Below are positions 37,357 through 59,991 of a DNA stretch of 64,000 bases, piece after piece. Made by a program: the position numbers and the translations under genes. The notes beneath the pieces were generated by a model. That model did no database searches, had not been told where the DNA came from, and saw only the letters and a program-made list of their open reading frames with translations. Source of the DNA: Minisyncoccota bacterium (GTDB lineage Bacteria; Patescibacteriota; Minisyncoccia; UBA6257; JAGOQP01); the NCBI GenBank assembly GCA_041661795.1, contig JBAZTS010000005.1, forward strand, positions 768-64,767. Direction: 5' to 3'. Each line of letters begins with the position of its first letter. The stretch's first letter is position 1.

Positions 37357-37917
37357 ATGAAATCATCTTCAAAAAGAATAACCTTTATAGTAATTTCTCT
37401 AATACTGCTTTTAATGTCGGCTATGGTCTACTCTTCTTTAATTAGAAAATCCTATGGTGACGTGAAAGAGTCAATGTCTCAATTGTCGGCCAAAAGAGAT
37501 TCTCTAAATAAATATCAAACAACATTAAATCAGGTGAAGAGTTTACTTGATAGTTTGGAAAGTAACGCCGATATACAAAAAAAGGTTTCTCTGATGCTTC
37601 CTAAAGATAAAGACGTGGGATATCTGGCTAATCAGATAATTGGACTTTCAAAAATAAACGGTCTTAATTTAGAATCTCTCTCAACTCAAGTAGCTCCAAC
37701 TCAGCCGTCTAATTCAGCCATCATAAAAAATGTGGGAAAACTCAGAGGCGAGGTGAGATTATCGGGAAGTTATGCCGGGTTCAAATCATTTTTAAAACAA
37801 ATTGAAAGTAATATTTTAATTCTTGATGTGAGCGAATTTCGCATAGAAGGATCTTCTAAAAGCGACGCTCCGTTAAAATACACACTTTCGGTATCAAGTT
37901 ATTATCAATCCGATTAG
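37357..37917 (+). CDS. pilO: PilO-like type IV pilus assembly protein
   Basis: Single N-terminal TM helix, coiled-coil and C-terminal domain. Position after pilN. Confidence 0.55.
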   Translation: MKSSSKRITFIVISLILLLMSAMVYSSLIRKSYGDVKESMSQLSAKRDSLNKYQTTLNQVKSLLDSLESNADIQKKVSLMLPKDKDVGYLANQIIGLSKINGLNLESLSTQVAPTQPSNSAIIKNVGKLRGEVRLSGSYAGFKSFLKQIESNILILDVSEFRIEGSSKSDAPLKYTLSVSSYYQSD

Positions 37918-37996
37918 TTAGTAGTTTGTATTCGGTAGTTGGTATATGGAGAGACGATGCCATATACTAAATACCATATACTAAATACCAATCAAT

Positions 37997-43033: not shown

Positions 43034-43199
43034 TTTACCCCCTCACTCATTGATACAAAGTTAATGAGTTAGTACCCAAGACAGAGCCGTAAGGCGACAT
43101 TCGTCTCTATCTTAGGTTGATACACAGACATTGCTACAATGAGTGAGGGGGTGCTCGGTTTTATTAATTAATCGCTACGCTCTTAAATAAAAACGGCAT
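43034..43199 (+). repeat. Structured ~165-bp intergenic repeat element, copy 2 (perfect outer stem), abutting the ATG of pilD
   Basis: ccccctcactcattg...caatgagtgagggggtgctcggttttat followed by taattaatcgctacgctcttaaataaaaacggcat-ATG. About 90% identical to 26298..26460. Confidence 0.8.
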
Positions 43200-44099: not shown

Positions 44100-44208
44100 A
44101 ACTATAATTTCTAAATCCTAATATCTAATTTCTAATCAATTTAGAAATTTCTAAATTATGATTTGATTAGTTATTAGTAATTTAGATTTAAGATTTTATA
44201 TCCCCGTT

Positions 44209-45307: not shown

Positions 45308-45328
45308 TTTAGCTACGAAATACGAATT

Positions 45329-45925
45329 ATGTACGAATATACTAACAAAACCACAAGATTTCTAAAACGAAACATCCTTTCGTACTTTCGTAAACTTTTC
45401 GTATTTCGTAGACAAAATGGTTCTACATTGATAGAGTTGCTTTTGGCTCTGGGAATATTTTCCATATTTATATCTGTTATTACCGGTGGTTTTATTCAGA
45501 TGCTTTCTAATCAACGTCTTCTTTTAAAATTAATGGCTTCTACCGACAACGTCAGTTTATCTTTGGAGCAAATAGCCAGAGAACTAAGAACCGGTGGTCA
45601 GTTTCAAACAAGTCCCGGAGGAGGAGATCTTATACAGTTTTTTAATGCCGATAAAAAATTTGTTAAATATTATTTGAATATCAACTCGTCAAGAGGACAG
45701 CTTGTAAGATCCGAAAGTTTGGCGGTTGACGATCCTTCGCCTGTTATAAGACCGATAACCGCCGATAACGTTGATGTTTCCCAATTTAACGTTGAGGTGA
45801 TGGATATAAACCCCTCCGGACCTCCAAGAGTTGTTATAAATGTCGGGGTTAGAGTATCAGAAAGAAAAATAAAAGAGGTTAATACGTTTATTCAAACAAC
45901 GGTTAGTCCAAGAAATATAGAGTAA
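45329..45925 (+). CDS. Pilin-like protein with prepilin-type N-terminal cleavage/methylation domain
   Basis: ...RRQNG|STLIELLLALGIFSIFISV has E at +5 and a hydrophobic helix, with an unusually long 29-aa leader. Confidence 0.55.
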   Translation: MYEYTNKTTRFLKRNILSYFRKLFVFRRQNGSTLIELLLALGIFSIFISVITGGFIQMLSNQRLLLKLMASTDNVSLSLEQIARELRTGGQFQTSPGGGDLIQFFNADKKFVKYYLNINSSRGQLVRSESLAVDDPSPVIRPITADNVDVSQFNVEVMDINPSGPPRVVINVGVRVSERKIKEVNTFIQTTVSPRNIE

Positions 45926-45929
45926 TTTT

Positions 45930-46373
45930 ATGAAAATTTGTAAACAAAATAATCAAGGGCAGGCCCGCCTGCCAACGACTGCGCCCGCCCGGCAATCGCC
46001 TGACGGCTCAAGCCGGATGGCGGACGGGCGTAGCAATGGCGGGCAGGCAATTTTAATGGTGGTTATGATTTTGGGAGCCACCATGCTTGGTGTTTCCACT
46101 ATTGCTGGATATATATTTTTGCAAAAGATAAAAACTGCCACTAATGTTATTAAATCCACCGAAGCTATTTTTGCCGCTGATTATGGAGTAGAGTGTTATC
46201 TTTATAAATTTTCCAAGGATAACAGTTATGATTGTTCTGCTTTGCCACCACTTTCCAATGGAACGACGGTTGAGGTTTCTTCTGTCCAAACCGGAGAAAA
46301 TTCCGAGTTGATAAAATCAATAGGGAAATCAGGAAATATTTCCAGAGCTTTTGGTATTTTCATTGGAGAATAA
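45930..46373 (+). CDS. Hypothetical pilin-like membrane-anchored protein. Its 5' region contains a GC-rich insert, and the true start may be the internal Met at 46017.
   Basis: Hydrophobic helix GGQAILMVVMILGATMLGVSTIAGYIFL after a basic leader. The first 30 codons are a GC-rich palindromic segment unlike the rest of the genome. Confidence 0.4.
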   Translation: MKICKQNNQGQARLPTTAPARQSPDGSSRMADGRSNGGQAILMVVMILGATMLGVSTIAGYIFLQKIKTATNVIKSTEAIFAADYGVECYLYKFSKDNSYDCSALPPLSNGTTVEVSSVQTGENSELIKSIGKSGNISRAFGIFIGE

Positions 46374-46380
46374 AATTGGC

Positions 46381-48477
46381 ATGAACAAACAACAAGCCAA
46401 AGAACGTATAGGAAAACTTCGTAAGTTAATTGATTATCATAGGAACCTTTACCATACATTTGATGAGCCGGAAATCAACGATTCTGCTTTTGATACTCTA
46501 AAAAACGAATTGGAGGAGTTGGAATATAAGTTTCCTGATTTAATAACATCTGATTCTCCGACACAGAAGGTCGGAGGAAAGCCATTGGATAAATTTGAAA
46601 AGGTTTCTCATGAAAAGCCAATGCTTTCTTTTAATGACGCTTTTTCGGAAGAAGAAATGAATGAATGGATGGAGCGTTTGGAAAATTATCTCGGTAGACC
46701 GCTGACTGACGCAGACAGTACGCGGACTAACGCAGAAAAAAGTCGGCGTAAGTCAGCGTCAAGTCCGCGCAAGTCTGCATCTCTGTTTTATTGTGAGCTA
46801 AAAATTGACGGGTTAGCAATTGAACTTATTTATGAGAATGGAATATTAAAACAGGGAGCTACTAGGGGCGATGGAATTATCGGGGAAGATATAACTCAAA
46901 ATTTAAAAACAGTTAAAGCTATTCCACAAAGGTTAGAACAATTGGGAAAATATAAAATTCCCAAGCACTTAGTTGTCAGAGGTGAGGTTTTTATAACAAA
47001 AAAAGATTTAGTAAGAATCAATAAAGAACAGCAAAAATTAGGATTGAAATCTTACGCCAACACCAGAAACTTGGCGGCGGGTTCTGTTAGACAGTTAGAC
47101 CCTCAAATTACTGCCTCAAGAAAACTTGATTCCTTCCAATACGATATCGTCACCAATGTCGGACAAAAAACTCACGAGGAAGAGCATAAAATATTGGCTT
47201 CTTGGGGATTTAAAATTAATCTTCATAATAAAAGCGTTACTGATTTAAATAATGTCTTTGAATTTAGAAATTATTGGGAGAAAAAAAGAGAATCTTTGGG
47301 GTATGAAATTGACGGGATTGTGGTTATTGTTAATGACAACAGTTCTTCTGACAAAGCCGGAAGTATAGGCAAAGCTCCCAGAGCCGCCATCGCTTATAAA
47401 TTTTCTCCTCGCCAGGCGACAACTATTATTGAAGATATAAAAGTCCAAGTGGGAAGAACAGGAACTCTGACTCCCGTGGCTATTTTAAAACCCGTTGAAA
47501 TTTCCGGGGTAACTATTACTCACGCCACTTTGCATAATTTTGACGAGATAAAACGACTTGGAGTTAAGATTGATGATACGGTTATTATTACCCGTTCAGG
47601 GGACGTTATCCCAAAAATTATCCAAGTAATAAAAGAACTGCGCACCGGGAAAGAAAAAGAATTTAAAGTTCCTTTAAAATGTCCGGTAGACGGTTCAGGA
47701 GTCATAAAAGATGGCGTGATGATAAAATGTTCAAATCCTTCCTGTGGAGCTAAAAACAGGAATCAAATCATTCATTTTGTTTCCAGAAACGCCTTTGATA
47801 TTAGAGGTCTTGGTAAAAAAATTATTGACAGATTTTTAGATGAGGGCCTCATAACCAACTCCGCCGACATTTTTAGTTTGGAAAAAGGAGACATATCCGT
47901 TTTGGAGAGATTTGGAAAAAAATCGGCTGATAATCTTATAAAAGAAATCAGTCAATCAAAAAAAATCAGAATTGATAAATTTATTTATGCTCTTGGAATT
48001 TTACATGTAGGACAAGAAACCGCATCTCTTCTTTCTAAAAAAATACAATCGTCCGGAAAAAAAGTAAGTATTGTTAATTTAAAAAAGTTTCTTTCTAATA
48101 TTTCTTTGGAAAAGCTTCAGGAATTACAAGACGTTGGCCCAAAGGTTGCTCAAAGTATTTATTCTTGGTTTTCTGATAAAAAGAACCAAAAACTTTTAGA
48201 TGATTTAAATAAATTTGGAATAGAGCTTGAAGTTATTAAAGAAAAAACATCAGGCGTCTTTAAGGGCTTAAATATCTGTCTGACCGGAACTTTAGAATCA
48301 ATGTCTCGCCAAAGGGCTAAGGAAATTATAGAAAGCCGAGGTGGGCATTTTCACTCAGATGTTTTGTCTTCAACTGATATTGTGATTGCTGGAGAAAACC
48401 CGGGTTCTAAGTATAATAAAGCCAAAGACAAGGGGATTGAGGTTTGGGATGAAAAGAAATTTTTAAATAAAATATGA
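46381..48477 (+). CDS. ligA: NAD-dependent DNA ligase LigA
   Basis: Adenylation motif ELKIDGLAI (KxDG), OB fold, Zn-finger Cys (CPVDGSG...C...C), HhH and C-terminal BRCT domains. Start set at MNKQQAKERI. Carries a ~30-aa low-complexity insert before KxDG. Confidence 0.9.
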   Translation: MNKQQAKERIGKLRKLIDYHRNLYHTFDEPEINDSAFDTLKNELEELEYKFPDLITSDSPTQKVGGKPLDKFEKVSHEKPMLSFNDAFSEEEMNEWMERLENYLGRPLTDADSTRTNAEKSRRKSASSPRKSASLFYCELKIDGLAIELIYENGILKQGATRGDGIIGEDITQNLKTVKAIPQRLEQLGKYKIPKHLVVRGEVFITKKDLVRINKEQQKLGLKSYANTRNLAAGSVRQLDPQITASRKLDSFQYDIVTNVGQKTHEEEHKILASWGFKINLHNKSVTDLNNVFEFRNYWEKKRESLGYEIDGIVVIVNDNSSSDKAGSIGKAPRAAIAYKFSPRQATTIIEDIKVQVGRTGTLTPVAILKPVEISGVTITHATLHNFDEIKRLGVKIDDTVIITRSGDVIPKIIQVIKELRTGKEKEFKVPLKCPVDGSGVIKDGVMIKCSNPSCGAKNRNQIIHFVSRNAFDIRGLGKKIIDRFLDEGLITNSADIFSLEKGDISVLERFGKKSADNLIKEISQSKKIRIDKFIYALGILHVGQETASLLSKKIQSSGKKVSIVNLKKFLSNISLEKLQELQDVGPKVAQSIYSWFSDKKNQKLLDDLNKFGIELEVIKEKTSGVFKGLNICLTGTLESMSRQRAKEIIESRGGHFHSDVLSSTDIVIAGENPGSKYNKAKDKGIEVWDEKKFLNKI

Positions 48478-53860: not shown

Positions 53861-55339
53861 ATGAAGGAGCTCTTTAGTAGAAAATTTGGAATTAAAGAAT
53901 ATCACCAGGGACTTTTGGATAAAGAGTTTTCCGTAACCGAAGCCATTTCGGAGTTTTTTGGTTTTATAAAAAAAGAAGATGAAAATATCGGAGCTTTTTT
54001 GAAAGTTATGGAAGAGGATGGAATTTCAAAGGCCAAAGAACTTGATAAGAAATTATCTTCCGATAATCAGATTTCAGAAATGTTTGGAGTGCCTATGGCT
54101 ATAAAAGACAATATTTTAATAGATGGATTTCAAGCCACCGCCGCTTCAAAAATTTTGGAAAATTATGTGGCTTCTTATGATGCTACGGTTATAAAGAATT
54201 TGAAAAATAGCGACGCTGTTTTCTTGGGAAAAACCAATCTGGATGAATTTGCCATGGGGGCATCAACCGAATATTCGGCTTTTAAACAAACCAGAAATCC
54301 TTTGGATTTATCAAAGGTTCCCGGGGGTTCTTCTGGGGGTTCGGCTGCGGCTGTGGCGGCTAATATGACTTTGGGGGCTTTGGGGTCCGACACTGGGGGA
54401 TCCATAAGACAACCGGCTGGATTTTGCGGAGTCGTTGGACTAAAGCCGACATACGGAGCTGTTTCAAGATATGGAGTCATTTCCTTGGCTTCAAGCTTGG
54501 ATCAGGTTGGGCCTTTTGCTAAAAGCGTTGCCGATGCCGCTTTGATTTTCAAAACCATAGCCGGTCAGGATAATTTTGATTCAACTTCCAATAAAATTAA
54601 TTGGTCGTCTGTTGATGAATATAAAAAAGAAGATGTTAAAAAACTTAAAATTGGAGTACCTAAAGAATATTTTGTTAAGGGTATGAACCCAAAAGTAGAG
54701 AAAGCAATTTGGGATGTTGTGGAGAAATTTAAAAAAGATGGATTTGATGTTAGAGAAGTATCTTTACCAAACAGCAAACACGCTATTTCTTGTTATTATA
54801 TAATCTTGCCAGCCGAGGCCAGCGCCAATTTGGCCAGGTATGATGGAATAAGATATTCGGATGTTAAGGAGTTAAAAGGAAAAGAATTGGGGCTTTTGGA
54901 TTATTATTTAAAACAAAGAGGACTTGGAATCGGAGACGAACCAACAAGAAGAATTCTTCTTGGAACGTTTGTTTTATCTTCTGGGTATTATGACGCTTAC
55001 TATTCTAAAGCCCAAAAAGTAAGAAGGTTAATATTTGAAGATTTTGCGAAAGTTTTTGACGACAAGAATGACGGAGTTGATGTAATCATAACTCCGGTTT
55101 CTCCATCAACCGCTTTTGGAATAGGGGAGAAGAAAGATGATCCGCTCTCAATGTATCTTGAAGATGTGTTTACTTTGCCTATAAATCTATCAGGGCTTTG
55201 CGGACTTTCTTTGCCGGTAGAAAATCCGGAAACATTTAGTAAAGAAAATATGCCAATAAACTTCCAGATTGTAGGACGTCATTTTGAAGAGAAGAATATT
55301 TTAGGACTAGGAAGATATTATGAAGAGGAATTAAAATAA
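53861..55339 (+). CDS. gatA: Asp/Glu-tRNA amidotransferase subunit A (amidase family)
   Basis: Amidase signature GGSSGGSAAAVAANMTLGALGSDTGGSIRQPA with the Ser-cisSer-Lys triad context. Confidence 0.9.
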   Translation: MKELFSRKFGIKEYHQGLLDKEFSVTEAISEFFGFIKKEDENIGAFLKVMEEDGISKAKELDKKLSSDNQISEMFGVPMAIKDNILIDGFQATAASKILENYVASYDATVIKNLKNSDAVFLGKTNLDEFAMGASTEYSAFKQTRNPLDLSKVPGGSSGGSAAAVAANMTLGALGSDTGGSIRQPAGFCGVVGLKPTYGAVSRYGVISLASSLDQVGPFAKSVADAALIFKTIAGQDNFDSTSNKINWSSVDEYKKEDVKKLKIGVPKEYFVKGMNPKVEKAIWDVVEKFKKDGFDVREVSLPNSKHAISCYYIILPAEASANLARYDGIRYSDVKELKGKELGLLDYYLKQRGLGIGDEPTRRILLGTFVLSSGYYDAYYSKAQKVRRLIFEDFAKVFDDKNDGVDVIITPVSPSTAFGIGEKKDDPLSMYLEDVFTLPINLSGLCGLSLPVENPETFSKENMPINFQIVGRHFEEKNILGLGRYYEEELK

Positions 55340-58217: not shown

Positions 58218-58379
58218 TGATTCAGAAACTGGGAGATTGGCTTCCAGTAGGCCCTTTTTCGCTAACGCGAAAAAGAGGTTAACTGTTCTTTAACATACCT
58301 AACTACAAACGACGAAAGTCGAGCGAGACGAAATCCGCCTACGCTTGAGAAAGCTACGGCGAGACGAAGGGAGGCGGTC

Positions 58380-59594
58380 ATGAACCGCAATCGCAAGAGC
58401 GTGTGGATCGTTACTGTCATGGCGGTCGCGATCGCCATGATCAACATTAACCTGGTGGAGGCAGTTACGCCTCTCACCAGACAGTGGATTCCTTCTGTGG
58501 GATCCGGCTCGGGTATCAACTCGGCGCAGTGGCGGACGACGGTGTGGATTCACAACCCGTCGTCGGTTTCCACCGCCAACGTGGAAGTTTCTTTCTTCGA
58601 GAGGGGATCTTCCATCGGCGTTCCTCTGGTGGTTGTTACTCTCCAGGTTCTTTCTGGGGAGGCGATGACCCACCAGAACTTTATGTCGGATGTCCTGAGA
58701 GTATCAAAGTACGGATCTCTCAGGTTCGTTTCCGACATCCCTGTGTCGGTGCGTTCGCGCATCTACAATGCCAACAGCCCCACTCCTTCGGGAGCTGGGA
58801 CTGCTGGTCAAGCGTTTGACGGCATCAACGAGAACGATGCCGTCGGAGTTGGCCAAAGCGTGACGCTCCAGTCGGTCCCCACAACTTCCGATTTCCGTTT
58901 CAACTTCGGATTCATAGAAGTGGGCGGAACTGAGACGACTGTCCGGGCCCAGAGGATCAATTCCCTGGGACAGCCCGTCGGTGGTGACCGGGTCTACCTG
59001 GCTGGCGAGTATCAGGCCAACCAATTCCCGGTGAGCGATCTTTCCGTTACCACTACCGACATCGGCAGTAGTAACGATCAGATCAAGATGACCGTCACCC
59101 AAGGGGGACGGATCATCGCCTTTGGGTCTCTTGTGGACAACAAGACGGGGGACCCTACCACGGTGACACAGGAGTCACCGCTGGTCCGACCGGGAGTGTA
59201 CAGCTATACCATCCGCGACTCCCAGAACGGCGCCGTGAAGGGGACTCTGATCCTCAACGTGGCTATTGTTGAGGGAGTTCCTACGATGGTGAAGATGAGA
59301 ACCATATACTTGTGCGAGTGCGGACGGAATTGGTACTTCTACATCGACAACAGTGGCACGCCATTCTCTTTACCTATGACAAGCGGAGTGGGGGCTACTG
59401 AAGTAAGCGTCGGTCCCCCTTATGTTGAATTCTGGCTTGGGTGGGTACCGACAGTAAACCCAGATGGCACGGGGGGAGGATACGCCGATTATATGATCAA
59501 GAGCACCAATGCTCCTTGGTCTGAGTGTAATCTACTAACCACCACTCATGATCTTGTGGGAGGGTGGAGTGAACCTCTTCCGGCTGAGCAGTAG
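58380..59594 (+). CDS. Secreted protein of unknown function encoded in GC-rich block A
   Basis: SD gaagggaggcggtc-ATG and signal peptide MNRNRKSVWIVTVMAVAIAMININLVEA. 404 aa, GC-rich codon usage unlike the host genome, no recognisable family, C-terminal Cys cluster (CECGRNWYFY...C). Confidence 0.6.
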   Translation: MNRNRKSVWIVTVMAVAIAMININLVEAVTPLTRQWIPSVGSGSGINSAQWRTTVWIHNPSSVSTANVEVSFFERGSSIGVPLVVVTLQVLSGEAMTHQNFMSDVLRVSKYGSLRFVSDIPVSVRSRIYNANSPTPSGAGTAGQAFDGINENDAVGVGQSVTLQSVPTTSDFRFNFGFIEVGGTETTVRAQRINSLGQPVGGDRVYLAGEYQANQFPVSDLSVTTTDIGSSNDQIKMTVTQGGRIIAFGSLVDNKTGDPTTVTQESPLVRPGVYSYTIRDSQNGAVKGTLILNVAIVEGVPTMVKMRTIYLCECGRNWYFYIDNSGTPFSLPMTSGVGATEVSVGPPYVEFWLGWVPTVNPDGTGGGYADYMIKSTNAPWSECNLLTTTHDLVGGWSEPLPAEQ

Positions 59595-59778
59595 TGTAGT
59601 TAGGTAACAAGTTCTCAAAAGGGGTGTCTCGCAAGAGCACCCCTTGAGCTTTTTATATTGTTTTAATTCTCTAAATGTGATTTAATATATAATAGAAACC
59701 AAGAGATTGTCTCTTGGTATAGCACATTAACAAGTCGTGTGATCTGGGTGAGACATCCCCGGAAAGGAGGTGAGAAGA

Positions 59779-59925
59779 ATGGGGAACGAAAAGCGCCAGA
59801 AGTGGGCGGAGGATCGCCAGAAGCGTTACGAGCCCAAGGGACCCAAGACCGACAAGGGAGGCGGTCGCGAAAGGAATGTTGGTCATCCCAAGGGGGAGGA
59901 ACACAGTCGCGTCAGCAAGAAGTAG
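59779..59925 (+). CDS. Small hydrophilic basic protein (48 aa), possibly KGG/stress-protein-like
   Basis: Strong SD ggaaaggaggtgagaagaATG and translation MGNEKRQKWAEDRQKRYEPKGPKTDKGGGRERNVGHPKGEEHSRVSKK. Followed by a ggggcga...tcgcccc hairpin. Not in the ORF track because it is under 60 aa. Preferred over the antisense hydrophobic ORF 59671..59943. Confidence 0.4.
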   Translation: MGNEKRQKWAEDRQKRYEPKGPKTDKGGGRERNVGHPKGEEHSRVSKK

Positions 59926-59932
59926 CACCATG

Positions 59933-59954
59933 GGGGCGAGCAAATGTTCGCCCC
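59933..59954 (+). terminator. GC-rich hairpin (ggggcga-gcaaatgt-tcgcccc) at the end of GC-rich block A
   Basis: A perfect 7-bp GC stem just after the stop of the small ORF, followed by an AT-rich stretch. Confidence 0.45.
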
Positions 59955-59991
59955 TGCTATTATTATATGGTATATTATTGGAAATACTTAT

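Follow-up and report, generated by a model that had tools for sequence, protein, structure and literature searches.

The hairpin insert in ligA

The 64,000-nucleotide stretch analysed here, hereafter the window (positions 768 to 64,767 of contig JBAZTS010000005.1), contains ligA, the gene of an NAD-dependent DNA ligase, and within the reading frame of that gene a GC-rich hairpin element, which is the subject of this work. The predicted LigA is 100% identical to P0001, recorded as ‘NAD-dependent DNA ligase LigA [Candidatus Paceibacterota bacterium]’. It has the full set of LigA Pfam domains and matches LigA in the PDB with E = 1e-73. The proteins of the window carry Candidatus Paceibacterota names in public records, a group that belongs to the Candidate Phyla Radiation (CPR)/Patescibacteria. 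The coordinates of the features are collected in Table 1.

Table 1. Features of the ligA region, and copies of the element family in the GatA loop at other loci.
Feature	Position	Strand	Remarks
ligA, NAD-dependent DNA ligase	46381..48477	+	698 aa from ATG (MNKQQ..); from the list of open reading frames (ORFs)
In-frame GC-rich hairpin element in ligA	46694..46785	+	paired part 46694-46778; edges uncertain by a few bases
Left arm	46700..46741	+	four tandem CGCNGA(C/A) units, 10-11 nt spacing; direct-repeat family D1
Right arm	46742..46781	+	read as SRRKSASSPRKSA; inverted unit copies; inverted repeats I1, I5, I6, I7
ELKIDG, KxDG adenylation motif, intact	46795..46812	+	Lys codon 46801-46803; 3-4 codons past the insert; from the translation
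Second in-frame GC-rich palindrome, different family	45963..46047	+	in ORF 45930..46373, adjoining ligA upstream
GatA-loop copy, locus L013	6575-6665		DNA search
GatA-loop copy, locus L169	7275-7371		DNA search
GatA-loop copy, locus L003	6547-6634		DNA search
GatA-loop copy, locus L293	12555-12645		DNA search

The insert lies between the conserved segments PMLSFNDAF..ERLENYLG and (L)FYCELKIDG and adds about 28 residues ahead of the strand that carries the KxDG motif. Over its full extent the element encodes (G)RPLTDADSTRTNAEKSRRKSASSPRKSAS(L), corresponding to LigA residues about 105-135, and the peptide RPLTDADSTRTNAEKSRRKSASSPRKSAS itself is encoded at 46696-46782. The predicted translation includes ..NYLGRPLTDADSTR.. 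and, at the 3' junction, ..KSASLFYCELK. The LigA frame runs uninterrupted across the insert, with KxDG and all invariant LigA columns retained (E139, K141, D143 and G144 are invariant in an alignment of 87 sequences), and the other two forward frames of the insert contain stops. The insert is not an assembly artefact, since the identical-protein cluster of this LigA comprises two member sequences on two contigs (four listing sources) and independent assemblies also hold orthologous LigA inserts.

The left-arm units read CGCTGAC TGA, CGCAGAC AGTA, CGCGGAC TAA and CGCAGAA AAAA and make up two 21-nt direct repeats (46700-20 and 46721-41); the right-arm units read GTCGGCG TAA, GTCAGCG TCAA, GTCCGCG CAA and GTCTGCA. 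The unit pattern CGCNGACNNNNCGCNGAC has no match in the window outside the left arm of the ligA insert, and matches of the unit to the minus strand fall at 46752-46769, in the right arm.

A first-pass annotation, made from the letters alone, had described a GC-rich palindromic in-frame insert, giving its peptide and three pairs of complementary arms. This description is borne out. The GC content is 0.56 at 46700-46779, against 0.364 over the entire window (mean of 60-nt windows 0.364, sd 0.086), the peptide is encoded as stated, and all three arm pairs are present: CGCGGACT / AGTCCGCG (46721-28 and 46762-69, 100% complementary), GACGCAGAC / GTCTGCATC (46708-16 and 46773-81, 89%) and TGACGCAGAC / GTCAGCGTCA (46707-16 and 46752-61, 90%). 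A single hairpin can nest only two of them; the third, an alternative register, is visible because the arms repeat a ~10.5-nt unit in tandem. The predicted RNA fold of 46680-46800 has an energy of -42.1 kcal/mol, compared with -31.0 +/- 3.2 for dinucleotide shuffles (z = -3.5), and one of 200 such shuffles folds as well as the native sequence. The structure is one long interrupted hairpin (46694-46778, ~85 nt, ~28 pairs), whose 12-nt loop (46729-46740) is formed by the last left-arm unit. Two other identities for the insert were rejected: that of a terminator or attenuator, with no terminator-like call at 46694-46790, and that of a known RNA family, as the Rfam models yield only tRNAs in the window and leave the insert without a match.

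It had also been noted that most ligases are about 25 residues shorter at this place, and the comparison with relatives agrees. In a HMMER search against all PDB chains, the LigA match is split into query residues 1-105 and 134-340, leaving residues 106-133 unmatched. Across 160 related loci (species-representative genomes plus metagenomes), the stretch running from MLSF..F to K.DG measures 38 to 88 aa, the commonest length being 40 and that of the window 64. A neighbour-joining LigA tree computed after masking of the loop joins the window protein to P0002 and P0006 (90% bootstrap). The loops of these sisters, which are without the insert, are 12 and 15 aa long, against 32 in the window LigA, and alignment of the orthologues bounds the insert by ..NYLG and (L)FYCELKIDG. 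Since the nearest relatives and all solved LigA structures are without the insert, it is not a conserved ligase loop.

The AlphaFold2 model, based on the 87-sequence alignment, shows a confident ligase fold, with a mean predicted local distance difference test score (pLDDT) of 86. The pLDDT is about 50 at residues 111-130, between flanks at 85-95, and this low-confidence segment joins helix 90-104 to strand 136-142, which carries the KxDG lysine. The model, which the first-pass annotation had proposed as a check for a surface loop, fits that proposal. The insert is thus a real one, sits in what appears to be a surface connection between helix and strand, and leaves the catalytic motifs intact; the best reading of its peptide is a disordered surface loop that LigA tolerates. 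The insert is probably functionally neutral for the enzyme.

Relatives of the element and the LigA loop

The insert is a member of a family whose architecture consists of two to four tandem ACGCNGAY units (~10-11 nt), a short A-rich loop and the inverted units, and which reads ..[TI][ND]AD..T[RQ][IT][ND]A[DE]..[RQ]KSA.S.R.SA.. in translation. Family members occupy the same LigA loop at at least 13 further loci. Near-perfect hairpins are found there in L163 (-42.7 kcal/mol), L168 (-42.3), L167 (-41.2) and L169 (-34.8), and the copies in L161, L166, L007 and L115 have decayed toward the AT content of their hosts.

When about 1.1 Mb of Paceibacterota sequence was searched at the DNA level without regard to reading frame, by motif clusters and by nhmmer, copies emerged in other genes; the nhmmer matches between the window insert and family members elsewhere span 46695-46785. 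Four loci carry a copy in one and the same loop of GatA, between RFDGIRY and GFGxE (Table 1). This loop has a baseline of 18-24 aa versus at least 37 aa with the element, and it is a second recurrent landing site of the family. Further DNA-level copies lie in GatC (L014), at a second LigA site (L145) and in two hypothetical ORFs. In L293 (contig OBEQ011435224.1, 588-12645) there are four copies in 17.9 kb, of which MurD has two and GatA and a further ORF one each, and the density of the element therefore varies greatly among Paceibacterota genomes. Each of the 12 DNA-level copies is embedded in a long open stretch (129-751 codons) and can be read through in the frame of the host gene.

At the protein level, a 29-position profile of the insert peptide was run with HMMER against all of 1.84 billion representative proteins (E <= 0.001) and gave 19 matches, with no LigA among them. 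Going by Pfam or source names, the hosts include MurD (two inserts), PCMT, class I tRNA synthetases, a metallo-beta-lactamase (MBL)-fold protein, DnaG primase, MnmA (two inserts, one at a site common to two proteins) and RluA-type pseudouridine synthases, one of which comes from Candidatus Harrisonbacteria. The host P0137 was recognised as an IF-2-like GTPase from a reading of its sequence alone, without a Pfam scan. A protein word-index search with the aligned insert peptides returned 35 candidates and no match. As for the search for similar palindromes that the first-pass annotation had suggested, the family is dispersed in frame in other Paceibacterota genes, but the 64-kb window contains only the ligA copy, as judged by unit-pattern search, cluster scan and nhmmer. 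The GatA-loop pattern has no match in the window's own GatA (53861..55339), where the insert state is not readable from the pattern.

Hairpins of the ACGCNGAY-type unit are also common in viral contigs (~60% GC), where they are mostly intergenic, have 9-nt spacing, and consist of three units plus three inverted ones translating as NADERR / ICVHLRSSA. The scan gave many matches, part of the single-strand ones being expected by chance on a rough estimate, and only two-strand palindromic matches were used. The superfamily of the unit is therefore wider than the CPR; the scan does not show a phage vector for the CPR. Near-perfect hairpins of three ACGCAGAT-type 9-nt units and three inverted ones were seen in L239 and L249 (IMGVR_UViG_3300042846_000010) and in L229 and L251. 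These near-perfect hairpins fold at -50 to -78 kcal/mol and lie mostly outside long ORFs, and one 24.8-kb viral contig holds four copies.

What is conserved in the LigA insert was addressed by comparing codon positions in the ten pairs among five orthologous inserts. Amino-acid identity is 0.34-0.79 in the insert versus 0.67-0.92 in the rest of the nucleotidyl-transferase domain. Identity at second positions is lower in the insert, and that at third positions higher, in ten of ten pairs; the three codon positions of the insert are about equally conserved, which flattens the usual profile of position 2 well above position 3. The stem is also retained. In six equal-length orthologous inserts, standard pairs occupy 87.5% of the stem cells, against 23-38% after the partners have been shifted by 1-3 columns, and six two-sided pair changes are observed versus 2.7 +/- 1.2 in shuffles, of which 4 in 500 reach six, a covariation result that we regard as supportive, not decisive. 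Because the amino acids are poorly conserved, the codon positions flat and the stem pairing kept, the peptide is weakly constrained; unless the copies are younger than the genes, the sequence would be held by a constraint on the nucleic acid. The composition of the peptide, in which acidic residues, T and N are followed by R, K, S and A, is as it is because translation of ACGCNGAY and its complement must give it: the left arm reads T/N/D-A-D/E and the right arm R/K-S-A.

The LigA loop also holds hairpins unrelated to this family, in L095, L134, L096, L099, L014, L049 and L054. That of L095 is a GC palindrome reading ACLPAGRQ (z = -5.2), and the inserts of L099 and L014 are about 130 nt long and fold at -60 to -65 kcal/mol. 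The hairpin of L134 and L096 has a direct repeat on either side (IPNS.. / PISN..), of which the insert-free relatives L069 and L051 have only one copy, an arrangement that looks like a target-site duplication.

In one clade (100% bootstrap), long and short homologous states of the loop are interleaved on the LigA tree. The long state, LG(K/R)(S/P)L..SASL, carries the element, and the short one reads LGYDAL..KKESF. Two pairs of neighbours are mixed, namely P0004 (long) with P0012 (short), at 100% bootstrap, and P0007 (long) with P0014 (short), at 82%. The DNA of P0004 and P0012 is 82-94% identical along the gene and 57-75% around the loop, where each of the two resembles the same-state allele of the other lineage. 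This interleaving of insert-bearing and insert-free alleles implies that a short loop cassette has been exchanged between lineages by recombination. The alternative, repeated identical insertions that each replaced a short loop, is less parsimonious.

Nature of the element and comparison with known repeats

We consider it probable that the element is a tolerated, selfish, small and non-autonomous hairpin repeat, similar in kind to the Rickettsia palindromic elements (RPEs), that is lodged in frame in a loop of LigA. It would be transcribed and translated with ligA. It presumably is, or was, mobile or copied between sites. In genomes that have hardly any DNA between genes, selection would spare only those insertions that lie in permissive loops and in the one frame free of stops. 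A loop allele filled in this way might then pass between related lineages by short-tract homologous recombination. The palindrome may be kept by processes at the level of the nucleic acid, either selection on structure or quasi-palindrome correction via template switching, and the element would decay under AT pressure where such upkeep lapses.

Several observations weigh against this interpretation, a weak point being the single copy in the window, which means that dispersal in this particular genome is not shown. No transposase was found among the ten window ORFs scanned with Pfam or in the gene calls around the other copies, and the ligA element has no terminal signature. The only flanking direct repeat is ATCTC (46687-91 and 46780-84), which is no clean target-site duplication; by counting, the insert and one ATCTC copy amount to 91 nt, and their removal leaves the gene out of frame. 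Translation of the insert is deduced from the conservation of the frame. The short loop allele is not simply the long allele minus the insert, which points to replacement rather than plain interruption. The covariation sample comprises six related sequences, the same six from which the structure was derived. As for the exchange of the cassette, four-taxon informative sites favour lineage over allele grouping in the whole gene (175 versus 47) and allele over lineage grouping at codons 91-150 (18 versus 5), but most of the latter sites fall within the loop, where the long and short states are non-homologous, and only about 4-5 sites in the flanks favour allele grouping (e.g. ERMNN versus ERLEN). 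Because of this small number, the claim is limited to a short tract, and wide or long co-conversion of the loop flanks is not claimed.

A bolder version of the same idea is possible, if rather unlikely. It holds that the ACGCNGAY hairpins, together with the other hairpin families of the LigA loop, make up an active, structure-maintained class of mobile DNA in the CPR. With next to no room between genes, these elements would shelter in a small number of permissive loops of essential genes (LigA, GatA, MurD, MnmA and others). The filled allele would spread from lineage to lineage by homing-like short-tract conversion, selection or templated repair would keep the palindrome, and the units, with their 10.5-bp phasing, would be the site that a protein recognises.

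The even conservation over codon positions and the pairing retained among orthologous inserts, with some two-sided changes, could instead reflect a co-opted function of the nucleic acid in cis, such as an mRNA fold that retards translation or makes the message more stable, or a phased (~10.5 bp) array of CGCNGAC protein sites. The 10-11 nt spacing of the units, equal to one turn of the DNA helix, and the persistence of a GC-rich hairpin in a 36% GC genome would suit such a role. We nevertheless find it improbable. The copies of L161, L166, L007 and L115 have decayed and close relatives are without the insert, which is therefore not needed for ligA expression; the site has neither a terminator-like context nor an Rfam match; and the covariation is modest and can be mimicked by quasi-palindrome correction or recent spread.

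It is still harder to maintain that the insert is a lineage-specific functional loop of LigA, for instance a basic, S/R/K-rich DNA-binding arm by the adenylation site, under selection at the protein level and with the palindrome incidental. Such a role could be argued from the position of the insert 3-4 codons ahead of the KxDG strand, from its basic right arm, from the identical length (64-aa segment) kept in six lineages and from similar peptides in more distant LigA. The peptide, however, is less conserved than the rest of the domain in all ten pairs, with a flat codon-position profile, and its composition is dictated by the translated palindrome; unrelated enzymes hold the same sequence, other lineages fill the loop with unrelated hairpins, neither the closest relatives nor any PDB ligase has it, and the model gives it a pLDDT of about 50. 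Protein-level conservation across distant LigA orthologues, with no nucleotide conservation of the palindrome, is what the first-pass annotation had named as the sign of such a loop; the segment is not conserved in this manner, and the palindrome is conserved at the nucleotide level. Least credible of all is a local origin, in which slippage and template switching built the units de novo in a permissive loop and similar sequences elsewhere are convergent: the loop does vary greatly in length (38 to 88 aa), arms of short units in tandem are a product of slippage and no signature of transposition was seen, but the same 8-nt unit, arm order and reading recur in more than ten different host genes of several genomes, related hairpins are common in unrelated GC-rich contigs, and repeated convergence on the exact unit is unlikely.

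A small palindromic repeat spread in frame through unrelated housekeeping genes of Paceibacterota is, by analogy, an RPE-like pattern, and the likeness to RPEs that had been proposed at the outset is supported in that sense: the insert is in frame, forms a hairpin, belongs to a dispersed family and leaves an essential protein intact. RPEs comprise ten families (RPE-1 to RPE-10) of about 100-150 bp, with 44 in-frame insertions in R. conorii (PMC10969869). They too are hairpin-folding palindromes in frame in unrelated housekeeping genes of small, AT-rich genomes, and the peptide they add is tolerated, apparently on the protein surface (PMC10969869). The differences are that the present host belongs to the Paceibacterota/CPR and not to the Alphaproteobacteria, and that the element is smaller, at about 85-92 nt, has a GC content above that of its host, has arms made of ~10.5-nt tandem arrays where RPE arms are unique sequence, and is present in one copy in this window as against 44 in-frame insertions per R. 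conorii genome. Among the traits of the RPE-like class, the insert shows a hairpin beyond chance, an in-frame position, a location in a loop and absence from orthologues, the last in a pattern complicated by allele exchange; repetition at many genes is seen across Paceibacterota and not within the window, with its one copy. The relation to RPEs is one of analogy and not of membership, with differences in phylum, architecture and, probably, sequence; homology is not expected because the host, by protein names, is a member of the Paceibacterota.

Intragenic repetitive extragenic palindromes (REPs) offer another parallel. In the GTAG- and CGTC-tagged REPs described by Di Nocera et al. (2013), REP dimers within genes encode 20-30 amino acids and favour replication and repair genes, with hosts that include DNA ligase in Opitutus terrae, tRNA synthetases and pseudouridine synthases, and the CGTC REPs have no dedicated transposase (PMC3733652). 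The overlap with the host genes of the ACGCNGAY element is striking. Membership was rejected on architecture: a REP is a single 20-40 bp stem-loop with a stem of 5-13 bp, a loop of 2-20 nt, an unpaired GTAG/CGTC head and a 3-nt tail (PMC3733652), whereas the ligA element is an interrupted hairpin of ~85 nt with ~28 pairs, a 12-nt loop, direct-repeat units and no unpaired head, in which CGTC/GACG occurs only within the units. [quoted passage not shown] Here, unlike in MITEs, there is no target-site duplication flanking terminal inverted repeats, the ATCTC repeat at the ligA copy not restoring the frame, no terminal inverted repeats distinct from the body, and no related insertion sequence or transposase among the ten window ORFs scanned with Pfam and the gene calls around the other copies. 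Since the REP definition fails and the target-site duplication of MITEs is absent, we file the ACGCNGAY element as a new family of a known class, the in-frame palindromic repeats, that is neither an RPE nor a REP.

Organelles also harbour GC-rich in-frame hairpins akin to the insert, such as the GC clusters of yeast mitochondria and the double-hairpin elements of Allomyces, whose sequences are unrelated to it. The coding palindromes of Nematomorpha mitochondria resemble it in being locally GC-rich in-frame hairpins in essential genes of AT-rich compact genomes, with both arms translated, and differ from it in belonging to an organelle and not to a bacterium, in their unrelated sequences, in being perfect and in their much greater length, up to 284 bp (PMC6649704).

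In a search of a single library, we found no literature report of in-frame palindromic elements in CPR/Patescibacteria. Selfish DNA within protein-coding genes, classically a Rickettsia curiosity, would be extended to the CPR by this family, and as coding density is extreme in these bacteria, essential genes may be the only landing sites available. The family also accounts for odd low-complexity inserts (..TxADxTRTNAE..RKSAxSxRKSA..) that inflate or confuse alignments, domain models and annotation of CPR housekeeping proteins. Further interest lies in the recurrent use of the LigA and GatA hot spots, which maps naturally permissive insertion loops in both proteins, and in the exchange of the loop cassette; filled versus empty loop alleles provide a marker for recombination among uncultured lineages.

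Other hairpins and GC anomalies in the window

The second in-frame palindrome, in the ORF adjoining ligA (Table 1), has a GC content of up to 0.77 and folds at -53.6 kcal/mol. It encodes GQARLPTTAPARQSPDGSSRMADGRSNGGQA in the N-terminal tail of a small protein, ahead of the transmembrane helix, and GGGCAGGC stands at both of its ends. It is absent from the orthologues in L161, L171 and L172. Its presence in the neighbouring ORF shows that ligA is not the only gene of this genome in which such an insert is tolerated.

Further upstream, at 45308-45416, a hairpin whose 38-nt arms consist of TACGAAWW units in tandem (76% complementary) overlaps the start of a pseudopilin ORF (45329..45925), which for this reason begins with MYEYTNKTTRFLKRNILSYFRKLFVFRR, 26 residues before the N-terminal methylation motif. 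Three other long hairpins lie between listed ORFs, in or just upstream of the type IV pilus cluster. Those at 37913-37996 and 44112-44190 are made of short tandem units and inverted copies, and that at 43037-43152 has plain 25-nt arms (ACCCCCTCACTCATTG.. / ..CAATGAGTGAGGGGGT). With several tandem-unit hairpins in the window, such foldbacks are a general feature of this genome. Finally, a block of 60-68% GC at 58300-59960 stands out in the 36% GC contig and may be foreign DNA. It includes an ORF of 404 aa (58380..59594) with no Pfam match that is overlapped by ORFs on both strands and whose product looks secreted.

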